DNA of 64,000 nt from a virus: positions 44,317 to 108,316 of IMG/VR virus record IMGVR_UViG_3300027763_000039; one strand, written 5' to 3'. A program made the position numbers and the translations under genes. Positions 6,911 to 44,226 of the stretch are shown here, in pieces (position 1 is the first letter of the stretch; the number at the start of each line of letters is the position of its first letter). The notes beneath the pieces are model-generated. The model saw only the letters and a program-made list of their open reading frames with translations, did no database searches and was not told the DNA's origin.

Positions 6911-6920
6911 TTTTTATTTC

Positions 6921-9900: not shown

Positions 9901-12491
9901 ACTTCTGGATGATTACTAAATCCAATTATTGGAGGTATTTTACCTTGATCATCACACATGGCATTAACTGTAACTGATCCTACTATCAAAGCATCATCAA
10001 TATAATTACCTGGTTCTTCCCAGGCCCCGTCAGATGAAATCTGAAAATCTGTATAAACCTTCCCAGTACCTTGTTGAACAAAGATTCCAGTTGATTTTCC
10101 ATCTGAATCTTTAATCTCAGTCGTGGCACCATCATTAGTAAATAATCTATTATCTCTATACCACTGTGGCATAGGAACTTTAATCATATATTGTTTACCA
10201 TAATATTCTGTGGCGATATTAGCAAAAAATTTATGAATAGCTTGCAAATGATTATATAGAGTTTTTTGAAAAGGAGTAGCTTTATCCATTTCTGTTTGGG
10301 CCTGTCTTTGTGCTCCACCTTGAAAATTTGCTCGGTTCACACGATCAGTATTAGAGTTATTCCATAGCGTTTTTACTAAACCTTTAAAATTTTCTGAAGC
10401 ATTAAAATTACCATATGTTTGTCTAAAAACTTTGTAACAAAGTTCAGCAATATCTGTGGTGAAATTTGGATTAAAAGCATATGCCATCCATACATCAAAA
10501 CCCTTACCAGCAGCTCGTATTTCATTTTCTAAAACTAAAAATAATGAACTGTTATTACTATAACCATCAAAGTATGTTTTTGGCAAAGCACCCTTAAGGT
10601 CATCTATATAAAATAAAATTTGCATTTGAGCCATACCAGGATCAAAATAAACTTTACGAACTAATCCATTAGAGCCTACTCCAAAATAAGGACAGATGAC
10701 ATCTGTATACATTGGATGATTTTCCTTAGCTCCTGGTAATTTAATAAGAGTAATTTTACCAGCCAAATTTACTCCATCATAATAATTTCCTCTAGAAATA
10801 TTATTAGAAGAACTCCAAGGATCTAAAGGATTGGGATTATTTGAGAACATCTGTTTATCAGTGAAATTTCCCGGTTGATTCTCAGCCACTGCTGCACCAT
10901 CACCATATAAACTAGAATATCTTCTGGTACTCAAAAAACTAGGAGCTCTTAATTGATTACTACCTGGTTGTCCAATAGAATTTTCATAATTAATAAAAGA
11001 ACCCGTTTTATTATTAGCATAAGGATCATAAATTAGTGTTGTTTGCTTAGAAACTAAAGAACTAGTTTTAAATTGCCATAATCTTTTCTGTTTTCCACCC
11101 AAATACATTGATCTAGTAGTTTGATCAGAGTATTCTTGTCCATAATTGAAAGTGCTAACATTATACTTCTGCCTTACTAACCAAGATACATAGTTTTTAA
11201 TAACATCTTTTTGTGGTTGTAATCTACGAGAGACTGTGTTAACCTTAAAAATGGCACTATATGTACTTCCAGCAGGAGCTGGTTCTAATGAGATAAAAAA
11301 ATCATATCCTGATCCATCACAAATTTCTGTAATAAAAGACATTAAACTAATAGTTGGTCCTGTCATATATAGACTAGAAGGTGGATATGGTAATGCGCTC
11401 AAATCTAATTTATAGTAAGAATGAAAACTTCCATCACCACCCATAACACTAGGACATAAACAACAGTCTTTTAATGATATCTTGTTACCATCAGCATCAT
11501 TTATACCAGATTGATCAAAATCTACAGGAGAACCATTTGCAAAAGATAGTGCTCGGCCAAGAATTGCACCATGAGGAAAAAATGGATTAGTGTCTGTTGT
11601 TCCTTGAGCCAGCATATTAACTAGAGCATCATAGATATTTCTTGCGGGTATTCCATTGTCTGTTCTTCCAGAATTACCAAATCCTATTTGTTCCCAGTAT
11701 CCATAAATATTAAAAACATTAGGTAAATTACCTTGTCTTATAGAACCATTAAATGGTAAAAACGGTTTAGTAGAATCATAATGACATGGTACAGAGATAT
11801 TTTTTCCAGTACTATTGTCTGCTGTGTTTGGTATTGTGGCGGCTACTGTTCCAGCATATTCATCTATAATTAACCAACATCCTTTTAATAAAGACGACCC
11901 ACTCTTCATCTCTATTTCATAAATGGGCGAACCGCCTTGAGAACCGTTAGCTTTCCATGATGTTATTAATCCTCCAAAATATAAATCTTCAAACCAAAAT
12001 ACTGCTGGAATACCAATCAAGTCATATCCTACATTAGAAAACTTATTGGCGCCAGCTAAAAACCCTGGATCTGGTCCTAACCATTTTTTTGGAATACCAT
12101 TAACATTTTTACATATTTTCCCAAAATCCATACTATTATTATTTTGTTGTTCAATTTGTAAGCTAATTGGCTTAACTAAATTTTTAGTATTATCTGTAGA
12201 GAAATTTTCTGATGAGTCCATCACCAAAGCTTGAGACTTAGTATTAACTGGTTGATTATTAACCTGTTTTACCGAAGTATTAAGAGTATTATATTTAACA
12301 GATCGTGGGTGGTATGCTTGGTCCCATACTACAGTAACGGTTAAAGAACTAGAATCCTCACCCCAGGCCAAATTCATATTAAAGTTAGTAACGCTACATC
12401 CTAAAAATAGTGATTGTTCTAGTGGACCAACTTCTCTATATGACCCAACCGGATCAGCTGTACACTCTTTGCTAGGAGTTATATTTCCCAT
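6921..12491 (-). CDS. Putative tail tip/baseplate hub (Tal-like) protein, 1856 aa, with a CPFC...CPFC Zn-ribbon
   Basis: Long ORF downstream of the TMP and the Dit-like gene; beta-rich N-terminus (LFLGCSVTNFNMNLAWG); GCPFCQG...ECPFCE motif. Function from synteny. Confidence 0.6.
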   Translation of the reverse strand: MGNITPSKECTADPVGSYREVGPLEQSLFLGCSVTNFNMNLAWGEDSSSLTVTVVWDQAYHPRSVKYNTLNTSVKQVNNQPVNTKSQALVMDSSENFSTDNTKNLVKPISLQIEQQNNNSMDFGKICKNVNGIPKKWLGPDPGFLAGANKFSNVGYDLIGIPAVFWFEDLYFGGLITSWKANGSQGGSPIYEIEMKSGSSLLKGCWLIIDEYAGTVAATIPNTADNSTGKNISVPCHYDSTKPFLPFNGSIRQGNLPNVFNIYGYWEQIGFGNSGRTDNGIPARNIYDALVNMLAQGTTDTNPFFPHGAILGRALSFANGSPVDFDQSGINDADGNKISLKDCCLCPSVMGGDGSFHSYYKLDLSALPYPPSSLYMTGPTISLMSFITEICDGSGYDFFISLEPAPAGSTYSAIFKVNTVSRRLQPQKDVIKNYVSWLVRQKYNVSTFNYGQEYSDQTTRSMYLGGKQKRLWQFKTSSLVSKQTTLIYDPYANNKTGSFINYENSIGQPGSNQLRAPSFLSTRRYSSLYGDGAAVAENQPGNFTDKQMFSNNPNPLDPWSSSNNISRGNYYDGVNLAGKITLIKLPGAKENHPMYTDVICPYFGVGSNGLVRKVYFDPGMAQMQILFYIDDLKGALPKTYFDGYSNNSSLFLVLENEIRAAGKGFDVWMAYAFNPNFTTDIAELCYKVFRQTYGNFNASENFKGLVKTLWNNSNTDRVNRANFQGGAQRQAQTEMDKATPFQKTLYNHLQAIHKFFANIATEYYGKQYMIKVPMPQWYRDNRLFTNDGATTEIKDSDGKSTGIFVQQGTGKVYTDFQISSDGAWEEPGNYIDDALIVGSVTVNAMCDDQGKIPPIIGFSNHPEVNSREKWVAEQYIFNASNIPASNYGKSHLVTNWTFLLNSRRATDAVDENNNYYSSISHSLPPEEYIDIYTGGFANSMAFRTAHGFPIGSSTGANSKVSKQIGKTYVKANCEKDFVFIEPDADARVVVQISSPVKMGNGRNIADKEVGHIISQDFLLKMLKDSTIPSPVRNGADVGTNSTVNGGLRRYPYTLTWDPRGVMASFLYPGLQNEVFLDNNGQDSNLSSNNMHVLEKAAYPYFAAIPLESSMATYGPWTNHPGLIEEAIFDKTVLDVPSSVNNLVGSVKVQHDAGLVPWNYGGMDALDAAVMARIKDDVNYQQITEQGSIQVPGALLTSLSGTAFNLGDALIGENQKFGGPIISSIQVQVGEGGITTNYNFRTYTRKLGFYNKENADRIKEIGQESLKRRKEISTSLMGVLGSLNNGPQYGPTLSNQRYFGNLFNIHNEDNTPKVLRWSPFEILTGSNATIVRPDSTITDIYKDLNYSPGWSKMPFVTRNISYDPINMIRESTNVSLQDVQELPTEFQKGYENKSMMSLDGILSPISFYPTPHGSTFSITKYPRPGCPFCQGTAKYKYKYLDPDNTLTTVNVSTMTNAAIEKEVECPFCETIEDKKKKALVSASPKETNPPYILASGDDLTLIGKNSSGLPNGLSGNPIINYATLNPVLMSVGEFSSFQNRQFTDKTGHSIDLIGQGLTIPEGANGLKPAYAKNIERSYLDYDQNYMEFCSKRGVAPGITPANNMRYFGLRGPLMVHAWGYDLEGYPVPNASGEPKVIDGEIVKDTKTKQIIYKNQSQKPDGTWTEPYKEHQFYKGWGQLPSTWPVGPIDLRWDANAGVWTVGANYKPIWVVLETDLVNRQPSRGAVIEDSYTNDPLPSGLRKLVFVQDNLNIICVPRNAPVYCKYNGQNGFYEPIYNKHYITSGIIKGETQVSIYNIYQDPANTAANISSTTSPAPVITPETYLTTFNNPMGFNVVPDDLGMFIFMNGSWILQSVNC

Positions 12492-12518
12492 AATTTTATC
12501 CTTATTTTAATCTTCCTA

Positions 12519-14165
12519 TTAATCTGTTATGCACCTTACCCATTCCCATCCTTTAATTTTCGTGAATCTTCCTTCGGTGGGATTCCAAGTTGAACTATCC
12601 TGCTTGATATAAGATTTTACACCGCCGTTGATTGGATTAGATGACATATTCCCCGGATTAAAAGCTTCAACTGCTCCTGTAACAGCATTATAATGTTCTA
12701 CTGGAAATGTTAGATTTTTTAATCCTGTTGGCCTAGGAAATATCGCTTCAAAAGTAACATTTCTAGTAGCAGCAGTAACTGTTCCCAAGTCTTGTAAAAT
12801 AGGACCAAGTTTACGACCAAGAACAAAAATAGAAGCAATAATAGGAACAGCAGAAGTATCTTCTATAGTTAATGTTTCGCTAATTGAACCTGGAATTAAA
12901 TTAATTGGTCTATTGTTAAAAACCCAATTATAAGTCACAGTACCTTCTGATGGATTAAAACCTTCTTGAATACTATATGGAATGGGATTCATTGCATTTT
13001 CATATCCATTTGATCGAGTTCTATCGTTTTTGAATGGGCCGTCTTTAAAAAGAGGAGAAAAAAAGCTACGATCTCCAGTATTGGCAAAACTATTTACTCT
13101 ATTCATTATTTCAGGCTTAATACCACTATATCCACTAATAGCAGCAATAAATTTACTATTGTATATTCTAGTGTCTTTAGTATCTTTGTTATGAAGTTCG
13201 GCCAACGAACCACTTAAAGATCCACTAATATATGGTACTTTATCTTTGTTGTATATGTTTCCACTTTGAAAAGGTTCTAATCCTTTAACTGTGCCTTGAA
13301 TAGTAACTGTTCTTAACATGGTATTATCTAGAGTATTCTCCACAGAGAAAGTTTCTATATACCCCATTTTATCATCAGGCATACCCAGCCAAGTATCTGT
13401 AACTTTATAAGAACCTTCAGTATCACTAGTATTAACACTTCTAACAAAATTATACAGATATAAGCCCTGATCAATAACTCCTGTATATTTGGGGATTCCA
13501 GTAAGATGAACATTAACCCAGTATTTTGCATTTTGAACGGCACTTGTTCCTACTCCACTACCTGTTGGTATAAATTTACCAACTGCCCCTAATACTCTGG
13601 TAATACGATATAGTGGATATATTGAACCGGCACCATATGTTATCTTTCCAAAACCCAAAGAACCAATATCTAATGGAGATTTAGCAAAATTATACTCATC
13701 AATAGTTTCTATAGTATAATCATCTTGCGTACTACTAACATAGTATATGTTATTTCCTGTATCTACAACTTCTGATTGTAATTCTATACTATAGTTTATT
13801 GTAGTTGTCCAATTATCCTCTGTTTTATCAGCAGCATATTTAGTAATTTTAATTCCAGAATATACTATATTATCCTTAGTAGAATTATCATTCTCTCCAC
13901 AACCGATAGTTAAATTTTGTCCATCTGAAGAAAAAATCTTTTTCAATCCACTTTCCAAAGTTAGTAAACCAGAAAAACCAGAATTCCCGCCGCTAATAGC
14001 AGAATAGATTTTCCCCTCTAAATTAATAGTAACAGTAGCTCCAACAGGTCTCCCACCACCATCTCTTTGTTGTTCTTTAGAGATACTTATTACTGGAACA
14101 GGATATCCGCTGGCTCCTTTAAAGCTAAAGGTTCCATATTTTATATATGCTGATGTTGCTGCCAT
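12519..14165 (-). CDS. Putative distal tail (Dit-like)/baseplate protein, 548 aa
   Basis: ORF with AAGGA RBS; beta-rich; lies between the TMP region and the hub-like gene. Confidence 0.5.
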   Translation of the reverse strand: MAATSAYIKYGTFSFKGASGYPVPVISISKEQQRDGGGRPVGATVTINLEGKIYSAISGGNSGFSGLLTLESGLKKIFSSDGQNLTIGCGENDNSTKDNIVYSGIKITKYAADKTEDNWTTTINYSIELQSEVVDTGNNIYYVSSTQDDYTIETIDEYNFAKSPLDIGSLGFGKITYGAGSIYPLYRITRVLGAVGKFIPTGSGVGTSAVQNAKYWVNVHLTGIPKYTGVIDQGLYLYNFVRSVNTSDTEGSYKVTDTWLGMPDDKMGYIETFSVENTLDNTMLRTVTIQGTVKGLEPFQSGNIYNKDKVPYISGSLSGSLAELHNKDTKDTRIYNSKFIAAISGYSGIKPEIMNRVNSFANTGDRSFFSPLFKDGPFKNDRTRSNGYENAMNPIPYSIQEGFNPSEGTVTYNWVFNNRPINLIPGSISETLTIEDTSAVPIIASIFVLGRKLGPILQDLGTVTAATRNVTFEAIFPRPTGLKNLTFPVEHYNAVTGAVEAFNPGNMSSNPINGGVKSYIKQDSSTWNPTEGRFTKIKGWEWVRCITD

Positions 14166-14186
14166 AAATTATCCTTAAATTTATTC

Positions 14187-17100
14187 CTAGTTCAAATACA
14201 ATGGATCAGCACCATAATGATTGAGCTGATTGATTCTTGCTGTGGCTGACCATATTGCAGTATATCCTGTGGAACCACTAGCAACAATACTCAGTCTAGA
14301 GGGATTAGATGCAACTATTTGAGTGCTCAATGACATTCCAGCAGGCATACTATCTCCATAAGTTCTTACGCTTTCTGTGCCAAGCTTAGAAAATCTAAGA
14401 CCACTCACTGTTCTAATTAGAGCCCCTTCAATAAATATACCAGCCCCATATCTAGTCCCATAAGTATTTTGAGCTATTGTAGTCCCAGATTGCCACATAA
14501 CAGAAACATCTATTTGATATGCCCAAACTCTATCGTATTCATAATTTTGAGATCCAGAAAAAGCATCCAAATTGATACAGTTGGTTGAGGTTTCTGTTGT
14601 AGAAACTGTGCTTCCAGTTTGTGGTTTTGTCCAATCATTTACTAATGGTCTTACTTGACCACCATCTGTTGTACGAGTTCTTAAATAGTATTGAGCAAAC
14701 TGGGATGATCCGTTGTATTTTTCTTCACTAACCTTCAGAGATCCTCCAGCAAAAACATGATTATGTGTTGTGCGAGTTACTTGTGCTTTATAACCAAATT
14801 CTATACCAGCAATAGTACCAGGATCATTAGCTGTTGTGTTTTGATAAACTCTTAAACCACTAGATCCTACCCATGCATCTCCACGATAAACTAACATGCT
14901 TCCATCAGTCATGTTGGTGCCATCAACAAATTTATTAGTTAAACCAATATCTACTCTGTATGATGAATTACCTTGTGAAGTGTAGGTTATATTTGCTGGA
15001 TATATTCCAGAAAACTGTGTTTTCAAATCTATATCGCTAAAGCTCAAATTCCCATACTGGTCAGTTTTTAAATAATATCCAGAGACGGTTGCTCCCACAC
15101 CAAGTTTCAAACTATTAAACCAAGCTGTACCATTAGCATATAATACCACTCCACTGCTATTAGCATTAGAAATATTATTAGATGAAGCATTGATCATCAC
15201 TGATCCAGTTGGACTAATATGAAAACCATTTCTATTGCTCCAAGAACCAGAATTAATAACCGAAAATTTATTACCTAAGCCACGGTTATTAAATACTGTA
15301 TCATAATTATCGTTAGAGCTTAGTACGATATTATAAAAGCTATCTGGATTATTAACTAGAACATCATTAGTAAAGACTCCAGTAGCTCCCAGAGCTAAAA
15401 TTTGTTGAGAATTGATCCATTTGATGCTGGCATTTCCTGTAGCTAATGAGCCTTCATTTGCAAAAATAACACTATTAGGTCTTGTTGTAGTAGAGTTTAA
15501 TCGTCCACTATTATTAACATATAAGAATGTTCCAGTAAGACTAGGAGATAGATTGATTCCACTACTGATTGTTAAATTATTAAATGTGCCAGAATTACCA
15601 CTAACATTATAAAAATCGATTCTTTGATTACCAAAATTAGTATCTAATAATACTTTAGCAAATTCAACACCACCACTACCTCTTATTCTGAATCTGTATG
15701 TGGATGCTTCATCATTAACAAATACCCCGGTAGAAGCAATATAAAAACCATTATCTCCCCCCAAATTAAAATTCATTTGTTTGGTACTAGGACTGTACAA
15801 TATCTCAGAAATGCCACTAGCAACCTTATCACTTACTCTATACAATAATCCATTATCCGTACCAGAAATTCTAACAGGCAACTGCCATGTTCCAACGCCG
15901 TTAGTATTAGTTGTTAATACATAAGCGTCTGGAGCAGAAAAACCCACTCTAATTCCGGATGTTGTTGTTGTTCCACTTACTGATAACTCTGATGTTGGAC
16001 TATTTGTATTAATACCTACTCTATTATTATTTAAAGAAACATTCAAAACACTAGTATTATCATTACTAGACTTAATAATAAAGTTATCTTGTATAGCACC
16101 AGAATTGAAGACAACCTTATCATTATCTAATAACATCTTATTAGAATTATTAGTGCCCATATAAAGAGTATTATCTGCAACACCACTAATACCGTATCCT
16201 AGCACCACATTACGAACACCAGAAACATTATTATTATAACCAACAACAACACCACTACTATACAAATATCTATTATTAGTGCCAATAACTATATTATTAG
16301 AACCATAGATTGGATTCGTTTCAGTACCACCAGCCCCACCCATTCGTTGATATGGCATTACTAAACCACTAATTACGGATGTATTGGGACTATTATTATC
16401 ATCAAAAGCAGTATTGATAGAATAATATCCATTAGTAGTATCAACAGACATTGGTGAACCAATAGATATGGTAGTGGTTTCATCAATAGTATTTTCTGTT
16501 ACATTAACAATATCTCTAATGAAAGTATTTGAAACAGATGGTGAGCTTTGAACGTAAAATAAAATCTTATCACCGGCTATATATTGTGACAATAATCCAC
16601 GGGTGGGAATTGTTATATTGAGTCCAGCACTATCTAAAGTACATTTGTCTCTGGTGGAACCTAAAGTATTATTACGACCATATACTATATTATTGATACC
16701 GTGTAAATTATTTGATGTTCCAATAATGATTCCACTTGATACTGCCTGATTATATCCTAATACAATATTTCCACTACCAAAAACATCCATTTTATTATTT
16801 GTGGTGTTAAAAACTATAGACTCTTGACCAACAGCTAGTATCTTAGATCCAACAGCACCTAATTGATCACCGACCAAGAAATTAGAATTGCCAATTGCAT
16901 AAGCGTTGGAAGTATTTTTTAAGTTATTATAGGAACCAACAGAACTAATATTAGAACCAGAAGCAACATTTTTATTACCCAAAATAACATTACTATTACC
17001 AGATAATACCAAATTATTAATACCAGCAACAATAGAATTATTAACTGTTCCAGCTGTTCTAGCAGGGTTACCGCTAATGGCTCCATCTGAAGAGATATAA

Positions 17101-18515
17101 GCTCCAGTTTGATTATTCAGTATGCCTACAATTAAATTATTATTACTAATGGGTGGGACAGCATTAATGCTACCCAATACTAAATTGTTAGAGACAGTAC
17201 CACTTAAATTATTAGTATTGCCAACAACTAAAGAACCATTGATATCCTTAAGAGTATTAGACTGACCAATAAGTAATAGTTTGGATGGGGCTCCACTAGC
17301 AAAATTATTATTGATACCTAAAAGAATACTTTGATCCAGACCAGAGCTTGTAGAATTACCTAATCCAATAACAATAGACTTGCTTGTATCTTGTAAATTA
17401 ATATTATTGCCAACAAAAATACCACTAGAAATATTAGTTATATTTTGATCAGAACCAATACAGATAAGTTTGGTGCCGGTAATTACATCTGAACTGCCAT
17501 ATACTTTATTAGAGTTACCACTTAAACTAACTTTAGAACCAACTACGCTATTATCATTACCAAATATAGTATTAATATTACCAATATAAATATTGTTGTC
17601 GCCAGTATTACTTACATAAGAACCCAAAACAACACCAGATGCTCCAGAACCAACTCCAACTTGAACTAATCCAACATTTGTAGAAACATTAAGATTGTTA
17701 TTCCTTCCTAAAAGAATATTATAGTTACCAGTAATACTACTAGAATTACCAACAAAAATATTAGATAACCCAGTTAAACTAACTGAGTCACCCAGAGCAG
17801 TATTATTTGAACCAATTAATCTAGAGTTATTTACTAGAGCAAAAACTTTGGCTCCATTAAAATAGTTTGAACTACCAACAACTATGCCAGTATTAGATAT
17901 TCCTGTGTTACTTGAGCCGACAGTTGTTAATCCAACACCAGTTACAGAATTGCCAACACCTAAGACTGTGTATGTATAACCAGAAACGCTGTTGCCACCA
18001 CCCAGCACAACATTTCTTAAATTAGCACTAAATACTGGTTTATTTGTTCCTTTATCGTCAACAGTGAATAGTATTTCGCCACTAGTAGATCCCGTAATAG
18101 GATCTAAAATTTTGGACATTATTTGTCCGTAAACAATTTCGTTATAATTAGTGTCTCGTCCAGCCAAATTAATAGTAGCTGGATAGCTGCCAGATAATGG
18201 AGCAGTTTGGGGGTTGTGTACTAATAGGAGGGTGACACCTGTGGGGCAATTTGTAATACTCTCAACAATTAAGCCATCTTTAGCACATGGGGCGACCACA
18301 TGCAAAACAGCATCTGGTAATCCTGTACCAATTCCTAGTCTGCCAGTTGAGGCATCAAAATGTACTAGTCCATTACCGGTACCACGAATGCTAAAATCAA
18401 TATCTTGTTTGAGAGCATTAAAAGAGGTGCTAATACCAGAAGTTTCTGATAAGATAATTGATGGATTAACGCCAGAACCAACATAGAGTGTGCCGGATAC
18501 TGTTTGATTGCTCAT
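14187..18515 (-). CDS. Tail fibre/spike with long YadA-head-like G-x-x-N beta-roll repeats, 1442 aa
   Basis: Dozens of h-h-G-x-x-N repeats (NNIYIGNIN, NSVVGSKV, NLVLGSIN); fibre motifs RLGIGTGLPDAVLHV and RVGINTNSPTSELSVSG. Confidence 0.75.
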   Translation of the reverse strand: MSNQTVSGTLYVGSGVNPSIILSETSGISTSFNALKQDIDFSIRGTGNGLVHFDASTGRLGIGTGLPDAVLHVVAPCAKDGLIVESITNCPTGVTLLLVHNPQTAPLSGSYPATINLAGRDTNYNEIVYGQIMSKILDPITGSTSGEILFTVDDKGTNKPVFSANLRNVVLGGGNSVSGYTYTVLGVGNSVTGVGLTTVGSSNTGISNTGIVVGSSNYFNGAKVFALVNNSRLIGSNNTALGDSVSLTGLSNIFVGNSSSITGNYNILLGRNNNLNVSTNVGLVQVGVGSGASGVVLGSYVSNTGDNNIYIGNINTIFGNDNSVVGSKVSLSGNSNKVYGSSDVITGTKLICIGSDQNITNISSGIFVGNNINLQDTSKSIVIGLGNSTSSGLDQSILLGINNNFASGAPSKLLLIGQSNTLKDINGSLVVGNTNNLSGTVSNNLVLGSINAVPPISNNNLIVGILNNQTGAYISSDGAISGNPARTAGTVNNSIVAGINNLVLSGNSNVILGNKNVASGSNISSVGSYNNLKNTSNAYAIGNSNFLVGDQLGAVGSKILAVGQESIVFNTTNNKMDVFGSGNIVLGYNQAVSSGIIIGTSNNLHGINNIVYGRNNTLGSTRDKCTLDSAGLNITIPTRGLLSQYIAGDKILFYVQSSPSVSNTFIRDIVNVTENTIDETTTISIGSPMSVDTTNGYYSINTAFDDNNSPNTSVISGLVMPYQRMGGAGGTETNPIYGSNNIVIGTNNRYLYSSGVVVGYNNNVSGVRNVVLGYGISGVADNTLYMGTNNSNKMLLDNDKVVFNSGAIQDNFIIKSSNDNTSVLNVSLNNNRVGINTNSPTSELSVSGTTTTSGIRVGFSAPDAYVLTTNTNGVGTWQLPVRISGTDNGLLYRVSDKVASGISEILYSPSTKQMNFNLGGDNGFYIASTGVFVNDEASTYRFRIRGSGGVEFAKVLLDTNFGNQRIDFYNVSGNSGTFNNLTISSGINLSPSLTGTFLYVNNSGRLNSTTTRPNSVIFANEGSLATGNASIKWINSQQILALGATGVFTNDVLVNNPDSFYNIVLSSNDNYDTVFNNRGLGNKFSVINSGSWSNRNGFHISPTGSVMINASSNNISNANSSGVVLYANGTAWFNSLKLGVGATVSGYYLKTDQYGNLSFSDIDLKTQFSGIYPANITYTSQGNSSYRVDIGLTNKFVDGTNMTDGSMLVYRGDAWVGSSGLRVYQNTTANDPGTIAGIEFGYKAQVTRTTHNHVFAGGSLKVSEEKYNGSSQFAQYYLRTRTTDGGQVRPLVNDWTKPQTGSTVSTTETSTNCINLDAFSGSQNYEYDRVWAYQIDVSVMWQSGTTIAQNTYGTRYGAGIFIEGALIRTVSGLRFSKLGTESVRTYGDSMPAGMSLSTQIVASNPSRLSIVASGSTGYTAIWSATARINQLNHYGADPLYLN

Positions 18516-18527
18516 TATAATTACCCC

Positions 18528-21500
18528 TTATACTTGGAGTACTCCTTCTGTTTTCATTGCTAGTTTGTTCATGGCTCCGTTAACTTGATCTAGGATCATT
18601 CTCTGAATAGGTTCTTGCATATTAGCAAATACTGATGCTCCATTAATAACAACTTCTACTCTGTGTGTACCTTGTAGATTAACTTGTTCTGGTATTTTAA
18701 TCTGTTCAAGTTGACCAATAAATCTATTGAAAGTGCTGGTAAACTGGCTTAATCCGTCTAATTGACCTCTGCTATTATTATTTACACCACCACCGACTGG
18801 AGTTGCCCCCATGCTTTGAATCATGTTTTCTAAAGCCATACCAAATTGGGTTAATACTTGATTACTTCCAGTTAATAAAGTTCCAAATATCGCTAATTGT
18901 TTATCAACATCTCCAGCATGTTGAGGATCAAAAGCTGCTTGAGCAGCCATATTTACTCTTTGGCTCATTTGGGGATTCATCTGTTGATTACCCTGAGTAA
19001 ACATTGCCTGATTTTGTTGTTGGTTCTGTTGGTTTGTCTGATTCCCTTGAGGAGGAGCTTGTTGAATCTGTCTTGGTATTCCTCTATATTTATATTCTTC
19101 AGCTTTATTTATTTGTGCTTCTTTTACTCTCTCGCCCAATGCTTTTCTTTCAGCTTCTATACTATCTCTAGTCTGTTTTCTCTCTGCTTCTATTGCTGCT
19201 AGTCTTAGTTGATCTAATTGTCTTCTTTCATCTCTGTCTTGTGTATATTTTCGTTTTTTAGGAGTTTCTCCACCTGACTCTAAGTATACTACTCCACCAC
19301 TAGAAAATCCTTGGGCTCCACTATTAATACTCTTTAACAGAGGTAGATTTTGCTGAGTGGCCTGACGATTAACAACAAACTCTCCTGGGGTCAACATTGC
19401 TGGTACAGTGTCTGTGCCTCTTGGCTGATAAGGAATCAACATTCCATTATTAGCATAAACCACCCCACCTCTAGCCTTAGCTAATACATCAATATTACTA
19501 GGAGCTAAATTGTCTGAACCAATATATTTAATAGCTGATCCAGGTGGCATAGTTTCAAAAAATCCTTCTCTAAATTTTTGAAGCATCTCTGGATTTCTTT
19601 TTCCTATAAACTTCATAATTTGGGATAGAACTTCACCATCTCTTGTTACTGCATCTGTACTATCATATATTGCTCGTCTGCTTGGTAGTCTAGTCTGCTG
19701 TTGCATTAGCCAACTATCTGCAAGACCTCCCCCTCCACTATTTGGACTAGCAAATGTTTGTGTTTGAATACCTCTTAAGGTTTTACCAGATGGATCTTGT
19801 AATTCTAGTTTCTTTAATAACGGGGAATATTTCATATCAGATAATACTGATTGTACTTGGTCAAAATTATCATGTAACCAACGAGCCACATAAGATTTAT
19901 TTAGCTCATAATCAAGATCAAATCTTGATGGGTCTAATGTTTCATCAAATTTAACAATCATGGGTTTACCACGAGTATCTGCTCCTGTAAGTGTTCCTTG
20001 CATAATAGATCTGGCGTGTTTTTCAGCTGCTTCCCTACTAGTGTAGGTGTACAAGCCTTGACCTTGTCCGTACCCCTTTGCAATACTACTTTTACCACCT
20101 TCTTTTTGAAAACTTTTTAAAATAGAGTCTTCTAAGCCAGTATTACTAGCATGAAAAAGAGGTACAGTTTTAGAAGCTTTGGGCACATCTAATGGCGCAC
20201 TAGATTTAGTAATAGGAGTTTTTGCTCCTCTGATACTTTGTCTTGAACCAGCGTTGGTTGTTGTAGCACCTCCAGCCACAGCTGCTTCAGCAATATCAGT
20301 AAACATATTCCAAGCTGCACCAGCTCTTTCTAAAAAAGAAGCTCCTAATAATCCTGGTCCTGCTGGTGGACCATAAGCACTAATTTCTCCTGTTGGAGTA
20401 TGCCACTGTCTCCCACTATTATCTGTAGTTATTTTTGCTCGTTGTGTTTGTAATTTTGCCTGTTGATTAGCAAAGTCTAATTCTCCTTGGGTTGGAGTCA
20501 TTTCTGGCATATAGTTCTGATTTTGTTGACCTAGTCTTGGATCCATTAATCGTGATCCTGGAACCAACACACCATTTTGAGCATAAACTATGCCACCCTG
20601 AGATTTAAATTGACCAAATGCTTTTGCTTTAGAGGATGGTATTGGTGTGACAGGTGTTGGGCTTACGGGCTTAACTAAATCGCCATAGCCTTGTTGCTCA
20701 ATTTCATATGAGGTTGTTGGTCTTCTAATATAGTCTTCACCAACACCAGACTCAACTCTAGTAGTATCTGTTATAAGACTTGGTTTCTTAGTATAACCAT
20801 TTTCTCCAGCACTAATATCAGGATGTTTTTCTAATTTTTTCCATAATTTTTTAGCATCTGGAGTTTGACTATCGTCAGGTATTACAGAACCACCTATTTT
20901 AGTGATATACTCTATAATAGCATGATATAAACTTTCTCCATATCCTTTTTTGGCTAATGATGTTTCTATTTTAAATGTTTTTTGATTATCTATCGGTTTT
21001 GCAGAAACTCTTCCCCATCCTTGGTTAGCGGATCCAGTTTTTGGATCTTCATAAAAAGCAATTATCTCTCTTGCATCTTCTCCAAATACTTCTGAATTAA
21101 ACTTGTCTGCATTTGTATTATCGTATGGACTTAGAATGCGAATTTTATTACTTGCTGGAGCTCCAGGAACATCTGGAGTTTGTGGTTTATTTTGTTGAGC
21201 AAGGAGAGACTGTTGGAGCTTGATCATAACTTTTTGTTTAGCATCTTCTAATACTCCACGAGCTGTTTCTATTAAGAATCCACCTCTAGATTGTGCTAGT
21301 TTTGGATCAGTATCTGCTTGAGTTAAATTAAAATTAGTATGTCTAGACAAAAATTCAGCAGCAGCAGACTCGCTTTCAGGTTGATAGAAATTACCAGTTC
21401 CTTCGACTTTAGCACCATATGTGCCTCCAACTTTTTGTTCAGCAGTACCAATTAAACCTCTATCTTTGTATCGGGAGGCATTCATTTCATCTACTGGTCC

Positions 21501-30500: not shown

Positions 30501-33500
30501 TAAATCAGCTGCTTGTCTAGTACCAAGACTCACTCCTCCGACTACTTGATCTTCTGCTGACCTATAAGCTGTATCGAAATCGACAGAAGGATTGGCTGTT
30601 GCTATCTGATTTACAATTTTAGCTAATAGATCATCTACTGCTTTTTCAGCCTGTGCTGATACCGCATCAAAACTCGCTACTGCTTCATATGTTGTGCCAC
30701 CCCCAGCAAATCGTTGTATTCCACGAACAGCACCACCAGAACGATAGCCTAAAGCTTTAGTTGCAGCTTCACGAAGAATAAAGCTACCTACTGGTAAGTT
30801 TATCGGCCCTATACTATCACTAGTTCCTGTACCCGAACCTTTAAAAACACTAATTCCCCCAGAAGAAAATGAACTCATTCCATTACGATCTGCTTGATTC
30901 ATTCGGTTGAGTTTACCATATCCTATTGCCTTGGCTGTTTCTGGTGGAACATAAGCCTCACCATTAGAAACCATAGCTTGAACATGTCCACCCGATGCAT
31001 AACCTCTAGCTTTAAGATAATTACCAATTTGGTCTTTTAGTTCTGCTGGGCCATTAAGGGTAAGTTTAGCATCTGTTGGAATATTTTGAGGAAGATTAAA
31101 ATATTTAGCAGCATCCTGAAGACCATCTGGGAAGTCGATACCATAATTGGTGGCGGCTTTATTTGCTATTGGACCACCAAGCTGATGAATAATACTTTCA
31201 GCCATATATCCCTGAGCATTGGCCTCGCCCATCTTTTTACGATCAGAAGATTTAACTTTTTTATTCTTATATAGATAGGTGTTAATACCTGCTGCTTTTG
31301 CTGCATTAATATTTCTCTCATCATCATCAATAAATGAACCAGACTTGTCCATCTCTTTAAGTTTAAGTTCGGCAATTTGTTCAGCAGTACGATCTGGACC
31401 ACCAACACCTTTAATTCTATCTATTGGTATTGGGAGTCCATTTTTAGCTAACCATGTAGCAATCAAACCCATAGTTGCTTGTGGCCTAGCTGAAATCACA
31501 TGTAAATTATCAAGTAGTTCTGGAGTTTTCTTAACTTGACTAACAAGAGCTTTACCTAATTTGCTAAGTGTAGCTTTTGCTAGAGCCCTCTCTACTTTTG
31601 TCTTATCAGAAAATTCACTAAATCTTGGTTTTCTAGGATCAGATAGAATTTTATCAGCACCAAAAGCTAATGTCCTATCAAAATCAGAATATATGGGACC
31701 AACTTGTTTTAAAATATCTCTAATCATTACATTCTTGGTTAAGTTTTGACTTTCACCACTCATCGCTTGAGCCATCCTCTTGATGTCTCTTCCAGCAGCG
31801 TTTTTATCTAGGACACCACTAGTAATTCTAACTTTAACTGGATTATTTAGTCCTGGAATATCCATTCTGGGAGTTGTAGCAAAAGCTTTGCCCTTGAATC
31901 CAGCAGCACCAAACAATAGACCCTCTGTAGTTGCTTTTTGTATATCCAGATCATTTGCTGCTTTAATTCCAGAAGTTTTCTTTGTATAAGCTGCTAAGAT
32001 TTGATCTTTGATGCTTTTTTCCTGTGGACTTAATGCATTTTTTTTCTTTAATATTTTGAGTATATCACCAGCATTTGCTCCACTAGCTTGCATTGCTCCT
32101 TGTAGAGTAAGAACTTTTAATATTTCGCTAGAAGTAGCTGTTGTTCCTGCTGTTGGAGTTACCAAACCAGCATTAGCAAACTTACGAATAAAACCTCCGG
32201 AAGCTCTATTATTTTTCCCTTGATTTTTTGCGTATAAATCTCTAATTTCATTCATTACCAAATCTTTATTAGGCATCTCATAAACATTAATATTACCGAT
32301 GTCCTTAGACTCTGGAGAAGAAAGAGTAAATGGCCTAGTTAAATTTCTAACCACTCTTGCTCTTAATAACTTATCTAAATAATCTGTTTTAGACACCATA
32401 CCAGAAGGACGAAATTTTACTTCTCCTACTGATTTTCCATCTGCACTAATAAGATCTACGGGATAACTATTTCTACGAGGAATATTTTCAATTTCTCCAG
32501 TTGGTATATATTGTTTTCCTACTCGTTCTTTTATAGTTCTAGAAAGTAATCTCTCATATGCTTCAGACCATTTGGGGCTCTCATCTGCTGTTCCAAGCTG
32601 ACTAATTCTTCGTGCTCCTTCTTTACCAGCTAAAAAGTCTTTTGGTGATTTATCACTTCCTCTTCTTCCTAAAAGATTAGAGTAGCTTTGCATTTGTGTT
32701 GGAGTAGCTTTATTTTTTCCTAATGAAAATCTCTGATTTGTTGGAGAAATAGGTAGACCTTTTCTCATGTCATTATAAATTTCTCTTGCAATACTCTTAA
32801 CGTTCAATCCTAACATCCACGGCTCTATCTGTTTAATAAATCCTGAAGCACTATCTTCATTAACGTTCATATACCTAGCTATTTTAGGATTTTGAGAAAT
32901 TAATGAAACAGCTTGAGGTAGTTTTTGGATAGATACTGGTCCTACTTTTCCTCCTCCAGCATGTCTATTAATACGATGAAGATTTCCTACTCCAATACTA
33001 CGAACAGCACTTTTTCTAAGAACAAACTCTCCCGGCGTTAACATGGCCGGAACAGTATCTCCATCTCCAGAACCTGGAACATGACCACCAGCAGCAAAAG
33101 CTCTGATTTGTCCACCCTGATTATTTCTGGTGGGTCTAATACCACCAATAAATCCTCTACCGAACTGACCAAGAGCAGACAAACCTCTCATTGCAAATAT
33201 AGCACCAAGAGCTGGTAATGCTCCCTTGGCAGCATCTGTTAATCGAATTAAATTACTAGTTAAATCTAAAGATAATTTAACGAAAGACTGAAATCCAGAA
33301 CTTTGTCCAATGGATCTTACTAAGCCTACAAACTCATTTCTTACTTTTGCCATTTGAACAGCTAAAGATTGTTGTGCGGTGGCAGCATCAATTGCTAAAG
33401 AGTCTTGTCCACTTTGTGCAACCTTTAATGCTGCTTGAGCAGTTGCGAACTGTTGAATTAATGGAATCACCTTACCAATCTGACGAAAACCACCAAGTTC

Positions 33501-34679
33501 TTCTACAATTCTGGAGAACTTTAAATCTCGGGGATCTAATTGAGATAGTCCTTCACTTAATCTTCTAACAGCTTCGTATGGTCCAACGAATTTACCTTGA
33601 AGGTCTGTTAGTGTTACACCATATTCTTTAAGGGCATCGATTGTGTCTCCTCTTTGAATTCTGGTAAAAATTGTTCTTAAACCAGTAGCAATAGTTTCAG
33701 CACTTTCACGAGTTGTAGCTCGAACGCTAGTAAACACAGCCATAAATTCATTTAGAGCTTGAGTACCTTCACTAACACCCTTACTAGCTGTAGCAAACAC
33801 ACCACCGGTACGCTGAATAGCAGTAATAATATCACCGGCTTCAACAGCAAACTTAGCAGCTACCGCATTAACTGAACCCAATGCACTATCTAATTCACCA
33901 GCACTAATACCAAACTGTCTCATTAATGCGATACTACCTTCTACGGTACTATTCAAGTTATCGAATGATGGAGCTAATGCACTAAGAGCTAAAGCTTTTA
34001 ATGCCTTCTCTGTATCTCTAGCACTTAAACCAGCCTGAGCTAATGTGCTAGATACTTTAATTAATTCGTTAGATGACACACCAAACTTGGTTGATAATTC
34101 AGTAATTTCGCCAACCAATCCACCAAGATTCTTTACGGAAGTATCAGTAACCTGAGATACTCTGACTAATTCTTGATTAAAAGCAATAAAGTCGGTTGTT
34201 GCAGATGTCAGGGCGTTGGATACTTTATAGATGACAGCTGTTACTGTGCTAATAGCAGCAAATCTACGAGCAGCCAATGCTGATTGGCGACCAAATTCCA
34301 TAAAAGCTGAAGTTGTATTATGAACCGCAGCAGAAGCCGCAGCGTTTTGTTGAACAACATTTCTTGTAGCAGCATTAATCTGTTGTAAGTTTGCCGGTAG
34401 ATTAGCAGCACTATTATTAACTTGTTGTATAGCTGTTCCAAGATTTCTCAAAGATAAAGCTGTAGCATTTGCTGAGGCATTGGTGGCCTGTAAGGTATTA
34501 GTAAAATTTCTAAAAGTTTGATTAAGAGTAGTAATATTACGAGTTACATTAGGATCAACACGAACATTAACATCAGCATTAATAGTTCCTAGTTGTCGCC
34601 TAATATCAGCAACAACAGTCCTAATGTTAGATGGTCCTCGTAAATTTAACTCTGCTGTAAGATTAAAACCTCTAGCCAT
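18528..34679 (-). CDS. Giant tape measure protein (5383 aa) with TP901-type core and multiple embedded enzymatic cargo domains
   Basis: N-terminal TMP core (ELVRVSQVT...LAQAGLSA...VAAKFAVEAGDI...TRESAETIATGLRTIFTRI...GGFRQIGK); lies directly after the tail tube and chaperone genes; Ala/Gln-rich helical tracts; repeated PAMLTPGEFV motif typical of TMPs; GAGGT RBS. Confidence 0.92.
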   Translation of the reverse strand: MARGFNLTAELNLRGPSNIRTVVADIRRQLGTINADVNVRVDPNVTRNITTLNQTFRNFTNTLQATNASANATALSLRNLGTAIQQVNNSAANLPANLQQINAATRNVVQQNAAASAAVHNTTSAFMEFGRQSALAARRFAAISTVTAVIYKVSNALTSATTDFIAFNQELVRVSQVTDTSVKNLGGLVGEITELSTKFGVSSNELIKVSSTLAQAGLSARDTEKALKALALSALAPSFDNLNSTVEGSIALMRQFGISAGELDSALGSVNAVAAKFAVEAGDIITAIQRTGGVFATASKGVSEGTQALNEFMAVFTSVRATTRESAETIATGLRTIFTRIQRGDTIDALKEYGVTLTDLQGKFVGPYEAVRRLSEGLSQLDPRDLKFSRIVEELGGFRQIGKVIPLIQQFATAQAALKVAQSGQDSLAIDAATAQQSLAVQMAKVRNEFVGLVRSIGQSSGFQSFVKLSLDLTSNLIRLTDAAKGALPALGAIFAMRGLSALGQFGRGFIGGIRPTRNNQGGQIRAFAAGGHVPGSGDGDTVPAMLTPGEFVLRKSAVRSIGVGNLHRINRHAGGGKVGPVSIQKLPQAVSLISQNPKIARYMNVNEDSASGFIKQIEPWMLGLNVKSIAREIYNDMRKGLPISPTNQRFSLGKNKATPTQMQSYSNLLGRRGSDKSPKDFLAGKEGARRISQLGTADESPKWSEAYERLLSRTIKERVGKQYIPTGEIENIPRRNSYPVDLISADGKSVGEVKFRPSGMVSKTDYLDKLLRARVVRNLTRPFTLSSPESKDIGNINVYEMPNKDLVMNEIRDLYAKNQGKNNRASGGFIRKFANAGLVTPTAGTTATSSEILKVLTLQGAMQASGANAGDILKILKKKNALSPQEKSIKDQILAAYTKKTSGIKAANDLDIQKATTEGLLFGAAGFKGKAFATTPRMDIPGLNNPVKVRITSGVLDKNAAGRDIKRMAQAMSGESQNLTKNVMIRDILKQVGPIYSDFDRTLAFGADKILSDPRKPRFSEFSDKTKVERALAKATLSKLGKALVSQVKKTPELLDNLHVISARPQATMGLIATWLAKNGLPIPIDRIKGVGGPDRTAEQIAELKLKEMDKSGSFIDDDERNINAAKAAGINTYLYKNKKVKSSDRKKMGEANAQGYMAESIIHQLGGPIANKAATNYGIDFPDGLQDAAKYFNLPQNIPTDAKLTLNGPAELKDQIGNYLKARGYASGGHVQAMVSNGEAYVPPETAKAIGYGKLNRMNQADRNGMSSFSSGGISVFKGSGTGTSDSIGPINLPVGSFILREAATKALGYRSGGAVRGIQRFAGGGTTYEAVASFDAVSAQAEKAVDDLLAKIVNQIATANPSVDFDTAYRSAEDQVVGGVSLGTRQAADLGDQNAAKAVADAQRKQVASLTRQIRATDSSVSVSMAKAAAERKVADAWGGLYKAVQTNTQSQSRLAQSFPTLSKAFQGASRGLGSIRSRIMGPSDEEIGNMSDSQRAQYEAKRDRRARYMNGGLALAFAAPMAAEAVGSMVGGSNGRGVAAAGTAFGGAVSVGAQFGPWGALAGAVAGAVLAVDSFGKAVAEADIDVSKKKIEGSATNAEAQLEKLNKNPKDAAITSSIIQNFKSIAAEEEKISAKQAELRQPSYLTRGLEAASFGMYKAAKPTDKQIAEEETANQKVAGEIALKTITAKVEGGSNIQEALSSFGGDKDLAKLNIAQTNEKFNLENKKLENIKKTPGQDPQIIADVEKRQKELIDVYFKEETATLQATVAERSRVQALQQSARTLNLASVSISKTFENMDQAIAAATMGLDKASQRIDEIASGQASLKTEFKSKDVLKNPNAYSQKERQTAISQVSGMFGTDKKFVEGLSKFGSSAEDTITKIAVKAQQSGNGSSETLGDDITRELTQQLIDTFGDNRISDAIREQLKGAVKDNIKQNDGVLDPQSLIESTGGLKQLIDSQKKSFNTMLGQYEFIEKGLNQYGEAVQKAAELQTQAIGKFASLQGYLSDSTVSLKEALGEGRRISLKERASGRYTEAAINAGIKPGSLTAANLTNQRTMLMGQQAAVQGNISKLENSGNAADPAVISLINKQKEALANLNRQIAATEKGLETLPDLIKQDMQDTLSKISQLRSEKESKTQAGASFGEKLVTSTPTELKNLNSTYDLLNRTLNGQITTINQSISAQQAYQKVIEDGGTHMDAVGAAQEAFASDAKNTFGLFNELITVSGLDNTDPQRAGNLRADLIENTARNQGLNVQNNPFLREIVANLRAAPKEDPQIKALENLYKQQQAALGEATQKAINPLLEKQAQILNTANTALITALTNLTNAFNNAQGRNEGLGLARPGNVMTRAQGGPVYAASGTLVNYEPRGTDTVPAMLTPGEFVVNRSATQNNLPLLKSINSGKYAKGGVVYLAGGSTNPVQIANVIDPLVANMISGSDDAGDALNIIARGNRYRVPSNLSPRDPLFKFLLARQGDPAMTGARVRREWNAAVRASRLGINDPIFKPYIQQITEVKLAGLDLGDNDIPEIRRPRNVNPNGLERWLGIQPVKPKPPASLLNRTGNMLGSAYQGARSVIRNPGAALSYGASQAPGIARAAAPIAGRFFGSIFGAVSGAMADPRLTNRNRLVNTGLGMLTGTGETMGDVGAHSMIGWATGVEQGTMLDRQLGNFSQLGLTSVEHATMGVPAQFAPITAALAMNIQETAGYLADANDATTSEIRTNRNLQASRRPRRPNDHLGGFDLNAFQRSAVERKAELLRLKKKDQAARGNSQGTSSNQNFYDEQIRLIDDSFNTMDTVPGIFWDTKQDKNRGTGASSARLDAATEAHVQYLDEQERKSELAAEQKRAEKAKKVERQRQEERRQTRATQVRATANRAVQTAVPYVSSVANAAVSGFQTINRNNQENINRRRAANESQADRWVDRPALPPGAAKVAFDGDTVDVYKQTDKLNKEKQEIEAEIDRYKYKDPKDMSKEQKRDKEKLLQQLEDKNRQIVSLNNKAFVDIPLAEQDRLWKNYEKKQEREANRAQILASNRANSRRFNLELAVGKAVGMGAPDKFRSPEAFMGWREQALSKLRGKFNLSGSPRLDEKLLTKYGLSADAAKDLFRPFTPEQAEALIQTMSQQTVGGNYKYSDRDIAILRMSQDQIEQVAFRIYNKSGDYGADVATMAERKRLEKAQGKTFAKLLRNFSSIDRMAARGQGMNPGQQAMLKNNISKQLTKMGYINPEDTDAANAARLSAFNINNTVGLLYPRVAAGNPAFRVAQGSSNGGMIYAADGTLVDYQPRGTDTVPAMLTPGEFVVNAKATSQHLPLLQAINKSKGGVIYRSVGGETKTLDSTQQSSQIRDKELNSRLQQEIANNAKNNLGLSTKISDTTKNTKDQQLPKLVNNTDTINRNNLTRFDKVDVTEQRLLKNTDDLKKQNKTNLSQTSDSLGYMMDRDSTHYELSTAHFALSNRMDAKLDRLLLLAAAPPMIPPAPPAGAQNGPPLPGAPPGAGNLPVNPGGAGAQFSKGGIVYASAGKLINYQPKGTDTVPAMLTPGEFVVNAKATSQNLPLLQAINKDKGGVIYAEKGKHIPSQDLSFEDVALGKGLPAKFSPRTPAYGSKAELDKAVAEGYNAAISNDEELKSQPLGKLDHLQYRRAFPYVERHKLDTKIRTHYQPPFDTRFSGSLMGKEGQEVIHVDPKKGSYGLLMHEMRHAAFGSTDESQRSETFMTNEDLDWAVQVYNAKYPNNPISMSRAEYLTRPFEIDARLGAVRQIMKRHQQALVSANKPVPYKTVEQAYHYFLANRNSLNRSEDSGFATEDLDFYTMFKDKYETMMAMRMAELYSNGGVVYAQDGRQINKPSLEDIRAQRKADYENEKLRRKQVAGIKRKDKQSNKAKLTPEQIEKARQEARIASILKNWGNPEESSQLRNSRQYWNEYGNYSDAVGGSPAVNFRTWMKENYPGVKGDRLEKMIKDFDPEDANATTYSKGGIIYAHEGTLVPRIMDPRLGQQNQSDMPEMTPTQGELDWARRQQQAHVANRDAEGFDWNAPEGVISAYGPPPGPGPLGAPFHERMNMFSDIVGSFLFGLPGAGPKPSPQTRVPRAKTPLLKQPVVLPAPRPERAPLGFEDLGTRGAANPKAGGVKGTGLTSTDTQATAQVFDPSKTMSQSRTLAEYQKSLKDARDIEFKRLEKLKTQWAKEQLAEYQKQEKEGTLRPDTKSRNQQGLPVYRSLEERADEIASYRVRSHQQTLDAAYTSAKNSSEYDFASNRTVDTNKITGASSFIKPQAKPTFSKFIETKDFDIDSIQRLIQYPQPVFDSLVETLYQLTGTSGELPKTFNRTNLLFGDQEIGITGIGAKAPGVAQQPVGRMGVRDTIGRENIQTALKEVLLSNFRSEMGKFERVNLGPVDEMNASRYKDRGLIGTAEQKVGGTYGAKVEGTGNFYQPESESAAAEFLSRHTNFNLTQADTDPKLAQSRGGFLIETARGVLEDAKQKVMIKLQQSLLAQQNKPQTPDVPGAPASNKIRILSPYDNTNADKFNSEVFGEDAREIIAFYEDPKTGSANQGWGRVSAKPIDNQKTFKIETSLAKKGYGESLYHAIIEYITKIGGSVIPDDSQTPDAKKLWKKLEKHPDISAGENGYTKKPSLITDTTRVESGVGEDYIRRPTTSYEIEQQGYGDLVKPVSPTPVTPIPSSKAKAFGQFKSQGGIVYAQNGVLVPGSRLMDPRLGQQNQNYMPEMTPTQGELDFANQQAKLQTQRAKITTDNSGRQWHTPTGEISAYGPPAGPGLLGASFLERAGAAWNMFTDIAEAAVAGGATTTNAGSRQSIRGAKTPITKSSAPLDVPKASKTVPLFHASNTGLEDSILKSFQKEGGKSSIAKGYGQGQGLYTYTSREAAEKHARSIMQGTLTGADTRGKPMIVKFDETLDPSRFDLDYELNKSYVARWLHDNFDQVQSVLSDMKYSPLLKKLELQDPSGKTLRGIQTQTFASPNSGGGGLADSWLMQQQTRLPSRRAIYDSTDAVTRDGEVLSQIMKFIGKRNPEMLQKFREGFFETMPPGSAIKYIGSDNLAPSNIDVLAKARGGVVYANNGMLIPYQPRGTDTVPAMLTPGEFVVNRQATQQNLPLLKSINSGAQGFSSGGVVYLESGGETPKKRKYTQDRDERRQLDQLRLAAIEAERKQTRDSIEAERKALGERVKEAQINKAEEYKYRGIPRQIQQAPPQGNQTNQQNQQQNQAMFTQGNQQMNPQMSQRVNMAAQAAFDPQHAGDVDKQLAIFGTLLTGSNQVLTQFGMALENMIQSMGATPVGGGVNNNSRGQLDGLSQFTSTFNRFIGQLEQIKIPEQVNLQGTHRVEVVINGASVFANMQEPIQRMILDQVNGAMNKLAMKTEGVLQV
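19270..33120 (-). repeat. Dispersed intragenic linker repeat GG-h-h-Y-A-x-x-G(-x5-7-GTDTVPAMLTPGEFVVN-x4-QxLPLLxxIN) within the TMP
   Basis: PAMLTPGEFV copies at ~33020-33090, 27420-27620, 24685-24875, 23955-24147 and 19270-19480; degenerate copies ~30770-31000; short GGxxYAxxG copies ~23156-23190, 22725-22760 and 20570-20610. Confidence 0.9.
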
Positions 34680-43942: not shown

Positions 43943-44010
43943 AGCATCTCCTAGACCAGAATTATATTATTAAATGTTGTCATTATAGTGGCTAATATAG
44001 TCCTGTAAGT

Positions 44011-44019
44011 TAATACACC
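44011..44019 (-). promoter_or_regulatory. Putative phage promoter GGTGTATTA
   Basis: In the 80-nt gap upstream of the LamG gene (ATG 43942). Confidence 0.6.
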
Positions 44020-44022
44020 GGT

Positions 44023-44214
44023 TTAAACGATTGAAATCTGTAAGTCGCATGGTAAATCATATAATAAAACTTCGACAGAAACATAAGAAATTAAAACTGT
44101 CTCATTAGGAGCATTGTAGGTTAATAGATCATTAGACATATAAGAACAGTATATCCTATAAATTTCTCTGTCTTGATATGATAAAGGATATCCAAAAAAT
44201 GGAGGTAGTATCAT
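44023..44214 (-). CDS. Small hypothetical protein, 63 aa
   Basis: AGGAGA RBS; fills the operon gap. Confidence 0.6.
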   Translation of the reverse strand: MILPPFFGYPLSYQDREIYRIYCSYMSNDLLTYNAPNETVLISYVSVEVLLYDLPCDLQISIV

Positions 44215-44226
44215 GAATTTCTCCTA

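Follow-up and report, generated by a model that had tools for sequence, protein, structure and literature searches.

Introduction

The tape measure protein (TMP) of phage lambda, gpH, was reported in 1983 to be matured to gpH* and gpHC (Tsui & Hendrix 1983, as cited in PMC12617516). By the more recent account, gpH loses a C-terminal piece of ~14 kDa through a cut 'from the glycine-rich region', leaving gpH* of ~78 kDa (PMC12617516). The TMP of phage T5, pb2, is cut after R1127, which splits off a part with reported muralytic activity (PMC10038345). Here we describe a giant TMP in which an element homologous to a segment of gpH is present many times over. Its gene lies in a 64,000-nucleotide window of a virus genome (IMG/VR record IMGVR_UViG_3300027763_000039, positions 44,317 to 108,316); the record is 108 kb long and estimated to be 77% complete. 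The element, called the joint or unit below, spans ~70 amino acids (aa) around a repeated PAMLTPGEFV peptide. A preliminary description of the window, made from its letters, had taken the multiplied motif for a mark of cleavage and release or of unfolding and threading, and also for a source of homology in the shuffling of cargo; our analysis supports that picture in part.

A repeated joint in a giant tape measure protein

On its sequence, the single open reading frame (ORF) at window positions 18528-34679 is established as a TMP; all TMP coordinates given here are on the minus strand. Residues ~150-460 match the TMP core profiles TIGR01760 (E=1.2e-22, 80.4 bits, cut-off 28.8) and PF10145 (E=4.1e-24, 86 bits, cut-off 33.2), and several PHROG tape-measure families match the ORF. 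Because an N-terminal TMP core is combined with a conserved, TMP-like C-terminus, the ORF reads as a single TMP end to end. The core is 94-96% identical in L089 and L090, the closest IMG/VR loci, which we used for DNA comparison. At the other end, aa 5307-5381 share 83% identity with P0015 and P0046 (P numbers denote the proteins used to define protein homology blocks), and by eye the C-terminal strand-plus-helix pattern is like that of the lambda, T5 and Komp_PA14_H TMP C-termini. Outside the core, searches of Pfam, PHROG and NCBIfam returned nothing significant, the sole faint match being to HAD (E=0.019). Megablast of the gene against cultured phages gave no match, and among cultured phages the closest TMP cores share 21-27% identity.

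The repeated element is an ancient TMP joint of ~70 aa, in which two GG-h-h-Y strands stand around a near-invariant core, DTVPAMLTPGEFV, accompanied by a short helix. Its layout runs from GG-h-h-Y-A through ~12 aa to G-T-D-T-V-P-A-M-L-T-P-G-E-F-V-V-N, the helix and a closing GG-h-h-Y. In the TMP there are five ~70-aa units, all with the same 13 core residues, a conserved tandem divergent pair, two variant units and two solo half-motifs. Exact PAMLTPGEF(V) occurs at aa 544, 2379, 3294, 3537 and 5093 (window positions 33024-33050, 27519-27545, 24774-24800, 24045-24071 and 19377-19403), the five places first described, and nowhere else in the 108-kb record. In a self-comparison of the TMP the units are 54-71% identical pairwise, unit 1 being the most diverged. 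The pattern GG[IVMP][IV]Y is found 11 times in the TMP, as against 0.0175 in shuffled protein, and 0 times in the other 14,758 aa of the window's ORFs.

Copies near 30770-31000 had been called degenerate. They are indeed present, as the tandem divergent pair at aa 1216-1337, but they are not decayed: the two core subtypes of the pair recur at the same place in many relatives. Of the two variant units (each ~100 aa), V1 is found in P0013 and P0016 as well. Prediction of a unit homotrimer (3 copies, 120-row alignment) scored 0.01 and has no bearing either way.

Selection holds the peptide

Purifying selection acts on the unit peptide. Among the four best units, the proportion of synonymous differences (pS) is 0.61-0.74, which is saturated, and that of nonsynonymous differences (pN) is 0.22-0.33, with a nonsynonymous to synonymous ratio (dN/dS) of 0.12-0.33. 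The 13-codon core is 100% identical between copies as protein, 77-85% as DNA and 48% at third positions. Where residues are identical, the copies share the codon in 49% of cases, compared with 47% expected from the gene's own codon usage, and exact DNA matches between copies are just 8-20 nucleotides (nt) long. Synonymous sites are fully randomised between copies, and therefore it is selection that holds the peptide, not recent duplication; saturated pS together with chance-level codon sharing likewise indicates that the copies are old and without trace of gene conversion. The earlier view that near-identical protein copies with diverged synonymous positions imply selection on the peptide is thus upheld. 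The same short matches and randomised sites leave its companion proposal, that the motif supplies DNA homology for cargo shuffling, unsupported as written.

Compared with the closest relative, purifying selection extends over the entire gene (omega 0.06-0.20). We considered, and rejected, the idea that units are more constrained than modules between orthologues: in comparison with L090, units have an omega of 0.07-0.16 and modules one of 0.06-0.20. The extreme constraint is located in the core, not in the unit as a whole. Within-genome homogenisation of cores, as by co-evolution with a phage-specific partner, was also rejected, core identity being 0.78 within and 0.82 between proteins.

Joints at module and exchange borders

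By comparison of related loci, the joints coincide with exchange borders. We defined homology blocks as at least 150 aa at 60% identity or more, and counted internal block ends that fell within a unit or no more than 10 aa from one. Units account for 56% of block ends as against 12% expected, and beyond aa 900 for 36-41% as against 10-11%, so that block ends at units are 3-5 times commoner than expected; among the remaining block ends, solo GG motifs are enriched 6-10 times. The protein from the closest relative, P0015, shares 95% identity over aa 1-584 and then carries a different module; homology is back before the tandem unit pair and disappears once more over the C-terminal half, which is rich in cargo. 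At the solo motif at aa 828, homology blocks with P0096, P0043 and P0059 begin at aa 824-828.

The DNA behaves similarly. Homology to L090/L089 stops at aa 577/562, inside unit 1, resumes at aa 1230/1225, at the start of the tandem pair, and stops once more at aa 2425/2420, the end of the next unit (aa 2352-2424). Further DNA breakpoints are not at units, for example at aa 2924 and 3418. The synonymous divergence (dS) from L089 varies by segment (0.44, 0.83 and 1.19), as expected for mosaic ancestry. The position of the motif at module borders in homologues, which the preliminary description had proposed, is borne out by both the block ends and the DNA breakpoints within units. The joints set the conserved ruler parts of the protein (N-terminal core, module M2 and C-terminus) apart from variable cassettes.

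Distribution of the joint among phages

Counting of copies across databases, which had been suggested as a check, was carried out with a profile built from the five copies. At E<=1e-3, 13,739 representative proteins match this profile, 725 of them at E<=1e-30. The best 150 matching proteins are 935-7,872 aa long with 2-11 units each; in this family the first unit begins at about aa 515, directly behind the core, and a median of 141 aa separates the end of the last unit from the C-terminus. The same core 13-mer is shared by 438 of 800 units from 151 proteins, the modules of which are just 30-50% identical. The multiplied joint is a trait of a large uncultured clade of giant TMPs as well as of this phage. 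In 157 IMG/VR loci the units all lie within one ORF, one frame change excepted; this failure to split between ORFs fits a need for covalent linkage during assembly.

Against PDB sequences the five-copy profile found nothing; lambda and Douge were reached only by a diverse profile of 120 units, which had two significant matches among all PDB sequences, both to TMPs. These were mycobacteriophage Douge gp16 (1,699 aa; E=3.6e-11), at two sites (964-1034 and 1412-1461), and lambda gpH (E=2.4e-3), at aa 733-785 of 853 with GG motifs on either side. Unit 1 of our TMP is 58% identical to lambda gpH 754-786 over 33 aa.

Cultured phages mostly carry one unit, in a sub-terminal position of TMP genes; Pseudomonas phage Komp_PA14_H (1089-1142 of 1232) and Brevundimonas phage Domovoi (2132-2188 of 2441) are examples. 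Among the 60 phage records listed, annotated matches are tape-measure genes, the exceptions being one 'hypothetical protein' and RefSeq copies labelled 'endolysin'. The earlier statement that the motif stands once near TMP C-termini therefore holds for lambda, Komp_PA14_H and Domovoi, but not for Madeline, with 3-4 units, for Douge, with 2, or for Nodularia phage 2AV2, with 2 that lie upstream. A literature search for the motif letters, and for tape measure proteins as polyproteins or polyvalent proteins, returned nothing relevant.

Three of these matches are of interest in themselves. In the TMP of Gordonia phage Madeline (L088:1097-7537), a cultured and tractable phage, an SLT transglycosylase domain (aa 1543-1633) runs straight into a unit (aa 1629-1675); units of this TMP begin at aa 957, 1629 and 1974. 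The two units of the 2AV2 TMP (L006:8983-19197, 3,404 aa) lie at aa ~990-1126, upstream of the helical ruler part, and are preceded by ~1,000 aa of repetitive low-complexity sequence, an unusual placement. Synechococcus myophage S-SCSM1 carries one unit, at aa ~586-656, in a 950-aa virion 'lysozyme' encoded in the baseplate-hub gene cluster of this T4-like cyanophage (L170:3243-6095), and therefore the joint is not confined to siphophage TMPs.

Modules between the joints

At least one enzyme-like domain sits between joints, as indicated by both the fold and the motifs of module M1b (Table 1). In Foldseek the best PDB matches of its model are without exception HAD phosphatases, among them AphA and the T4 Pnkp phosphatase. 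All four HAD motifs (DxDxT, T-A-R, K and DD) are conserved in 11 sequences, and the HAD cassette covers aa ~990-1140. Behind the HAD core we noted a second conserved segment (window 31035-31500, minus strand; aa ~1060-1215) with E...D...E-x-K-like residues, modelled at low confidence. Module M8 behaves as a mobile cassette: together with its unit it is 92% identical in P0046, where the block ends exactly at the last unit's end, and in P0080, P0106, P0062 and P0072 it is located at aa ~1400-2900, its position differing between proteins. No stand-alone homologue of M8 was found. A module with an HExxH motif (aa 3580-3833) has one marginal match among the 150 multi-unit relatives and is nearly unique to this TMP.

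Table 1. Parts annotated within the tape measure protein, ordered from its N-terminus, with positions in the 64,000-nucleotide window.
Feature	Residues (aa)	Window position	Strand	Basis or remark
Tape measure protein ORF	1-5383	18528..34679	-	single open frame, 5,383 aa
N-terminal TMP core, Gly-rich hydrophobic stretch at its end	1-516	33132..34679	-	whole module kept in 117/150 family proteins
Unit 1, lambda-like subtype	517-586	32922..33131	-	hidden Markov model (HMM) 77 bits
Module M1b, HAD-fold phosphatase-like core	826-1215	31035..32204	-	AlphaFold2 (AF2) core, confidence score (pLDDT) 84-95
Solo GG half-motif, M1a/M1b border	828-836	32172..32198	-	motif search
Tandem pair of divergent units	1216-1337	30669..31034	-	HMM 29 + 37 bits, iterated profile
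Module M2, conserved helical part and glycine-zipper hydrophobic stretch	1338-2351	27627..30668	-	matched in 86 family proteins
Unit	2352-2424	27408..27626	-	HMM 106 bits
Unit	3267-3336	24672..24881	-	HMM 95 bits
Unit	3510-3579	23943..24152	-	HMM 97 bits
Solo GG-V-V-Y-A half-motif, between modules M5 and M6	3834-3842	23154..23180	-	motif search
Variant unit V1, GG-I-I-Y-A start and longer diverged core	3976-4069	22473..22754	-	59% identity to V2 over 105 aa
Variant unit V2	4694-4797	20289..20600	-	59% identity to V1 over 105 aa
Module M8, mobile cassette	4798-5065	19485..20288	-	protein block comparison
Last unit, 243 aa ahead of C-terminus	5066-5140	19260..19484	-	HMM 111 bits
C-terminal segment	5141-5383	18531..19259	-	last ~77 aa conserved

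Neighbouring genes

The neighbours of the TMP gene are all on the same strand, and the ORFs on either side match no PHROG, nor any Pfam family above its cut-off. Downstream of the TMP, window 2-18515 (minus strand) holds four large ORFs of 1,442, 548, 1,856 and more than 2,303 aa, with no Pfam or PHROG match, which presumably encode proteins of the distal tail or baseplate. Positions 40536-45381 hold tail-fibre-like ORFs. Adjoining them in the structural region is a second giant ORF of 4,021 aa (window 45397-57462, minus strand), without PHROG match. A 705-aa ORF (60627-62744, minus strand) strongly and repeatedly matches PHROGs of unknown function (phrog_17273, 9e-68); its matches to families of minor and major tail proteins are weaker.

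What the joint may do

The reading we favour, to which we give a probability of about one half, draws on lambda and T5: the joint would be a maturation and docking site, and the giant TMP may end up as a train of individual polypeptides that are delivered before the DNA. The repeated joint is the module that lambda gpH carries once, right after its glycine-rich cut stretch; in this phage and its clade it is multiplied and separates ruler parts from cassettes. Once the TMP is assembled, it would be cleaved where the GG motif has its N-terminal edge, as in lambda and T5, and the product would be a train of polypeptides in the tail lumen that leaves ahead of the DNA, beginning with the C-terminal piece. 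The 13-residue core would also bind one conserved partner, be it the cutting activity, the wall of the tube or hub, or a host factor; binding is probable because 13 residues far exceed what a protease site needs. A stricter version, in which the joints are maturation sites where the TMP is cut, in the assembled tail, into at least ten polypeptides, enzymes included, that are stacked in the lumen and injected in fixed order before the DNA, is tentative, and we consider it less likely than not. It would amount to effector delivery from the tail lumen of siphophages, the joint being a universal and portable cut-and-dock signal shared with lambda.

Cleavage at the joints of this TMP can be proposed by analogy only. 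From computed masses, the lambda cut falls around aa 710-730, immediately upstream of the GG motif with which the unit starts (F-A-T-G-G-F, aa 733). The T5 pb2 residues after R1127 are A-E-G-G-M-M-Y, so that GG-M-M-Y begins two residues past the cut. Several observations weigh against our reading. In lambda, the exact site of the cut and its catalyst remain open (PMC12617516). The unit profile did not detect T5 pb2 even with filters off, and the T5 parallel is therefore a five-residue motif lead, not homology. No multi-unit TMP has direct evidence of cleavage, and the search for a processing peptidase conserved with its carrier yielded none: the HExxH module is nearly unique, and the 77%-complete record holds no JAB or NlpC/P60 (gpK-like) gene. 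A single unit modelled by AF2 is not a confident autonomous fold (pLDDT 60, with the helix alone predicted). Some 40-60% of block ends lie away from joints, and the block ends counted, among which shared ancestry is included, do not represent independent events. Finally, Pfam searches of 91 inter-unit modules gave three matches, each to a single module (DnaJ, Gly-zipper_Omp and Rab15_effector), and 'enzyme cargo' is demonstrated for one module alone.

The main rival is that the joint is not cut. It would then act as a flexible docking site or hinge whose conserved partner could be the lumen of the tube, the hub, an assembly chaperone or a factor of the host envelope; the TMP would remain a single polypeptide, and its neighbouring modules could fold or thread independently. 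We regard this as a serious contender, though short of an even chance. An invariant 13-mer with a helix exceeds the requirement of a protease site, the lack of an autonomous fold is as expected for a partner-dependent motif, the units are not split into separate genes, and the two-unit Douge protein has been modelled as a trimeric TMP along the tube with no processing reported (PMC13033339). On the other side, both of the TMPs whose processing is known have their cut next to the motif or a look-alike (PMC12617516, PMC10038345), the irregular spacing of 50-1,000 aa speaks against periodic contacts with the tube, and the lambda unit falls in the released gpHC rather than in the channel-forming gpH*.

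The clustering of block ends and DNA breakpoints at units, together with the segment-wise dS relative to L089 and the mosaic ancestry it implies, could also be explained if units were kept mainly as DNA recombination hotspots that drive cassette exchange within and between genomes. We find this improbable: the synonymous sites are randomised between copies, the longest exact matches are those of 8-20 nt with core third positions 48% identical, conservation is at the level of the peptide, and selection acting on random junctions would produce the same border pattern. Still less probable is that the embedded HExxH module is a protease that cuts at the linkers. The motif is there, zincin self-processing has been proposed for polyvalent proteins (PMC5512222), and a language-model search, whose nearest matches were viral hypothetical proteins, ranked the LPD23 polyvalent-protein cluster 30th (score 0.91). 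However, a module that has one marginal match in 150 relatives cannot account for a joint found across the family; it matches nothing in Pfam, and lambda and T5 lack it. That the repeats are a chance or low-complexity artefact is scarcely credible, given 11 GG motifs where 0.0175 were expected, five 10-mers confined to one gene, and thousands of homologues.

The conserved joint is a precise candidate for the element behind the lambda gpH cut. Should the joints be cut, the tail lumen would serve hundreds of uncultured 50-240-kb phages as a cartridge for proteins made beforehand, what lies between the joints would amount to a large, untapped collection of host-directed proteins, and the joint itself would be a natural, portable signal with which to load proteins into phage tails. 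Should they stay uncut, these TMPs would still have no peptide more conserved than the joint.

Comparison with known systems

Length by itself does not bring the joint with it. The giant TMP of Thermus phage P23-45, gp96 (5,002 aa), likewise belongs to a siphophage, a cultured one, but has neither unit nor GG motif, and therefore the joint is not a general feature of long TMPs. Polyvalent proteins (Iyer et al. 2017, PMC5512222) resemble our TMP in being giant, multi-domain and virion-associated, with shuffled domains and a proposed proteolytic release. They differ in being packaged in the head or transferred by conjugation and in having no repeated delimiter, and TMPs are never mentioned in that paper; most modules here, by comparison, have no Pfam match.

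The actinobacteriophage TMPs with embedded lysin motifs, Douge gp16 and Madeline gp17, also carry several units per TMP, but are shorter (1.7-2.1 thousand aa), have fewer units and contain recognised cell-wall enzymes; the publications consulted on them give no description of the linker. In T5, the cut that turns pb2 into pb2* and pb2C parts a C-terminal piece with reported muralytic activity from the channel-forming part; the likeness of pb2 to the unit is at the level of the motif only.

Lambda gpH differs in having one unit in 853 aa, without cassettes, and that unit is unresolved in all structures; in the lambda and Douge virion structures just the last 32-42 residues are modelled (PMC12617516, PMC13033339). 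The homologous unit of gpH is flanked by GG motifs and has a Gly-rich hydrophobic stretch ahead of it, as does unit 1 here, a C-terminal hub-binding segment behind it and the cut just upstream. A joint ~70-260 aa ahead of the C-terminus is found in our TMP too, where the last unit lies 243 aa from the end.

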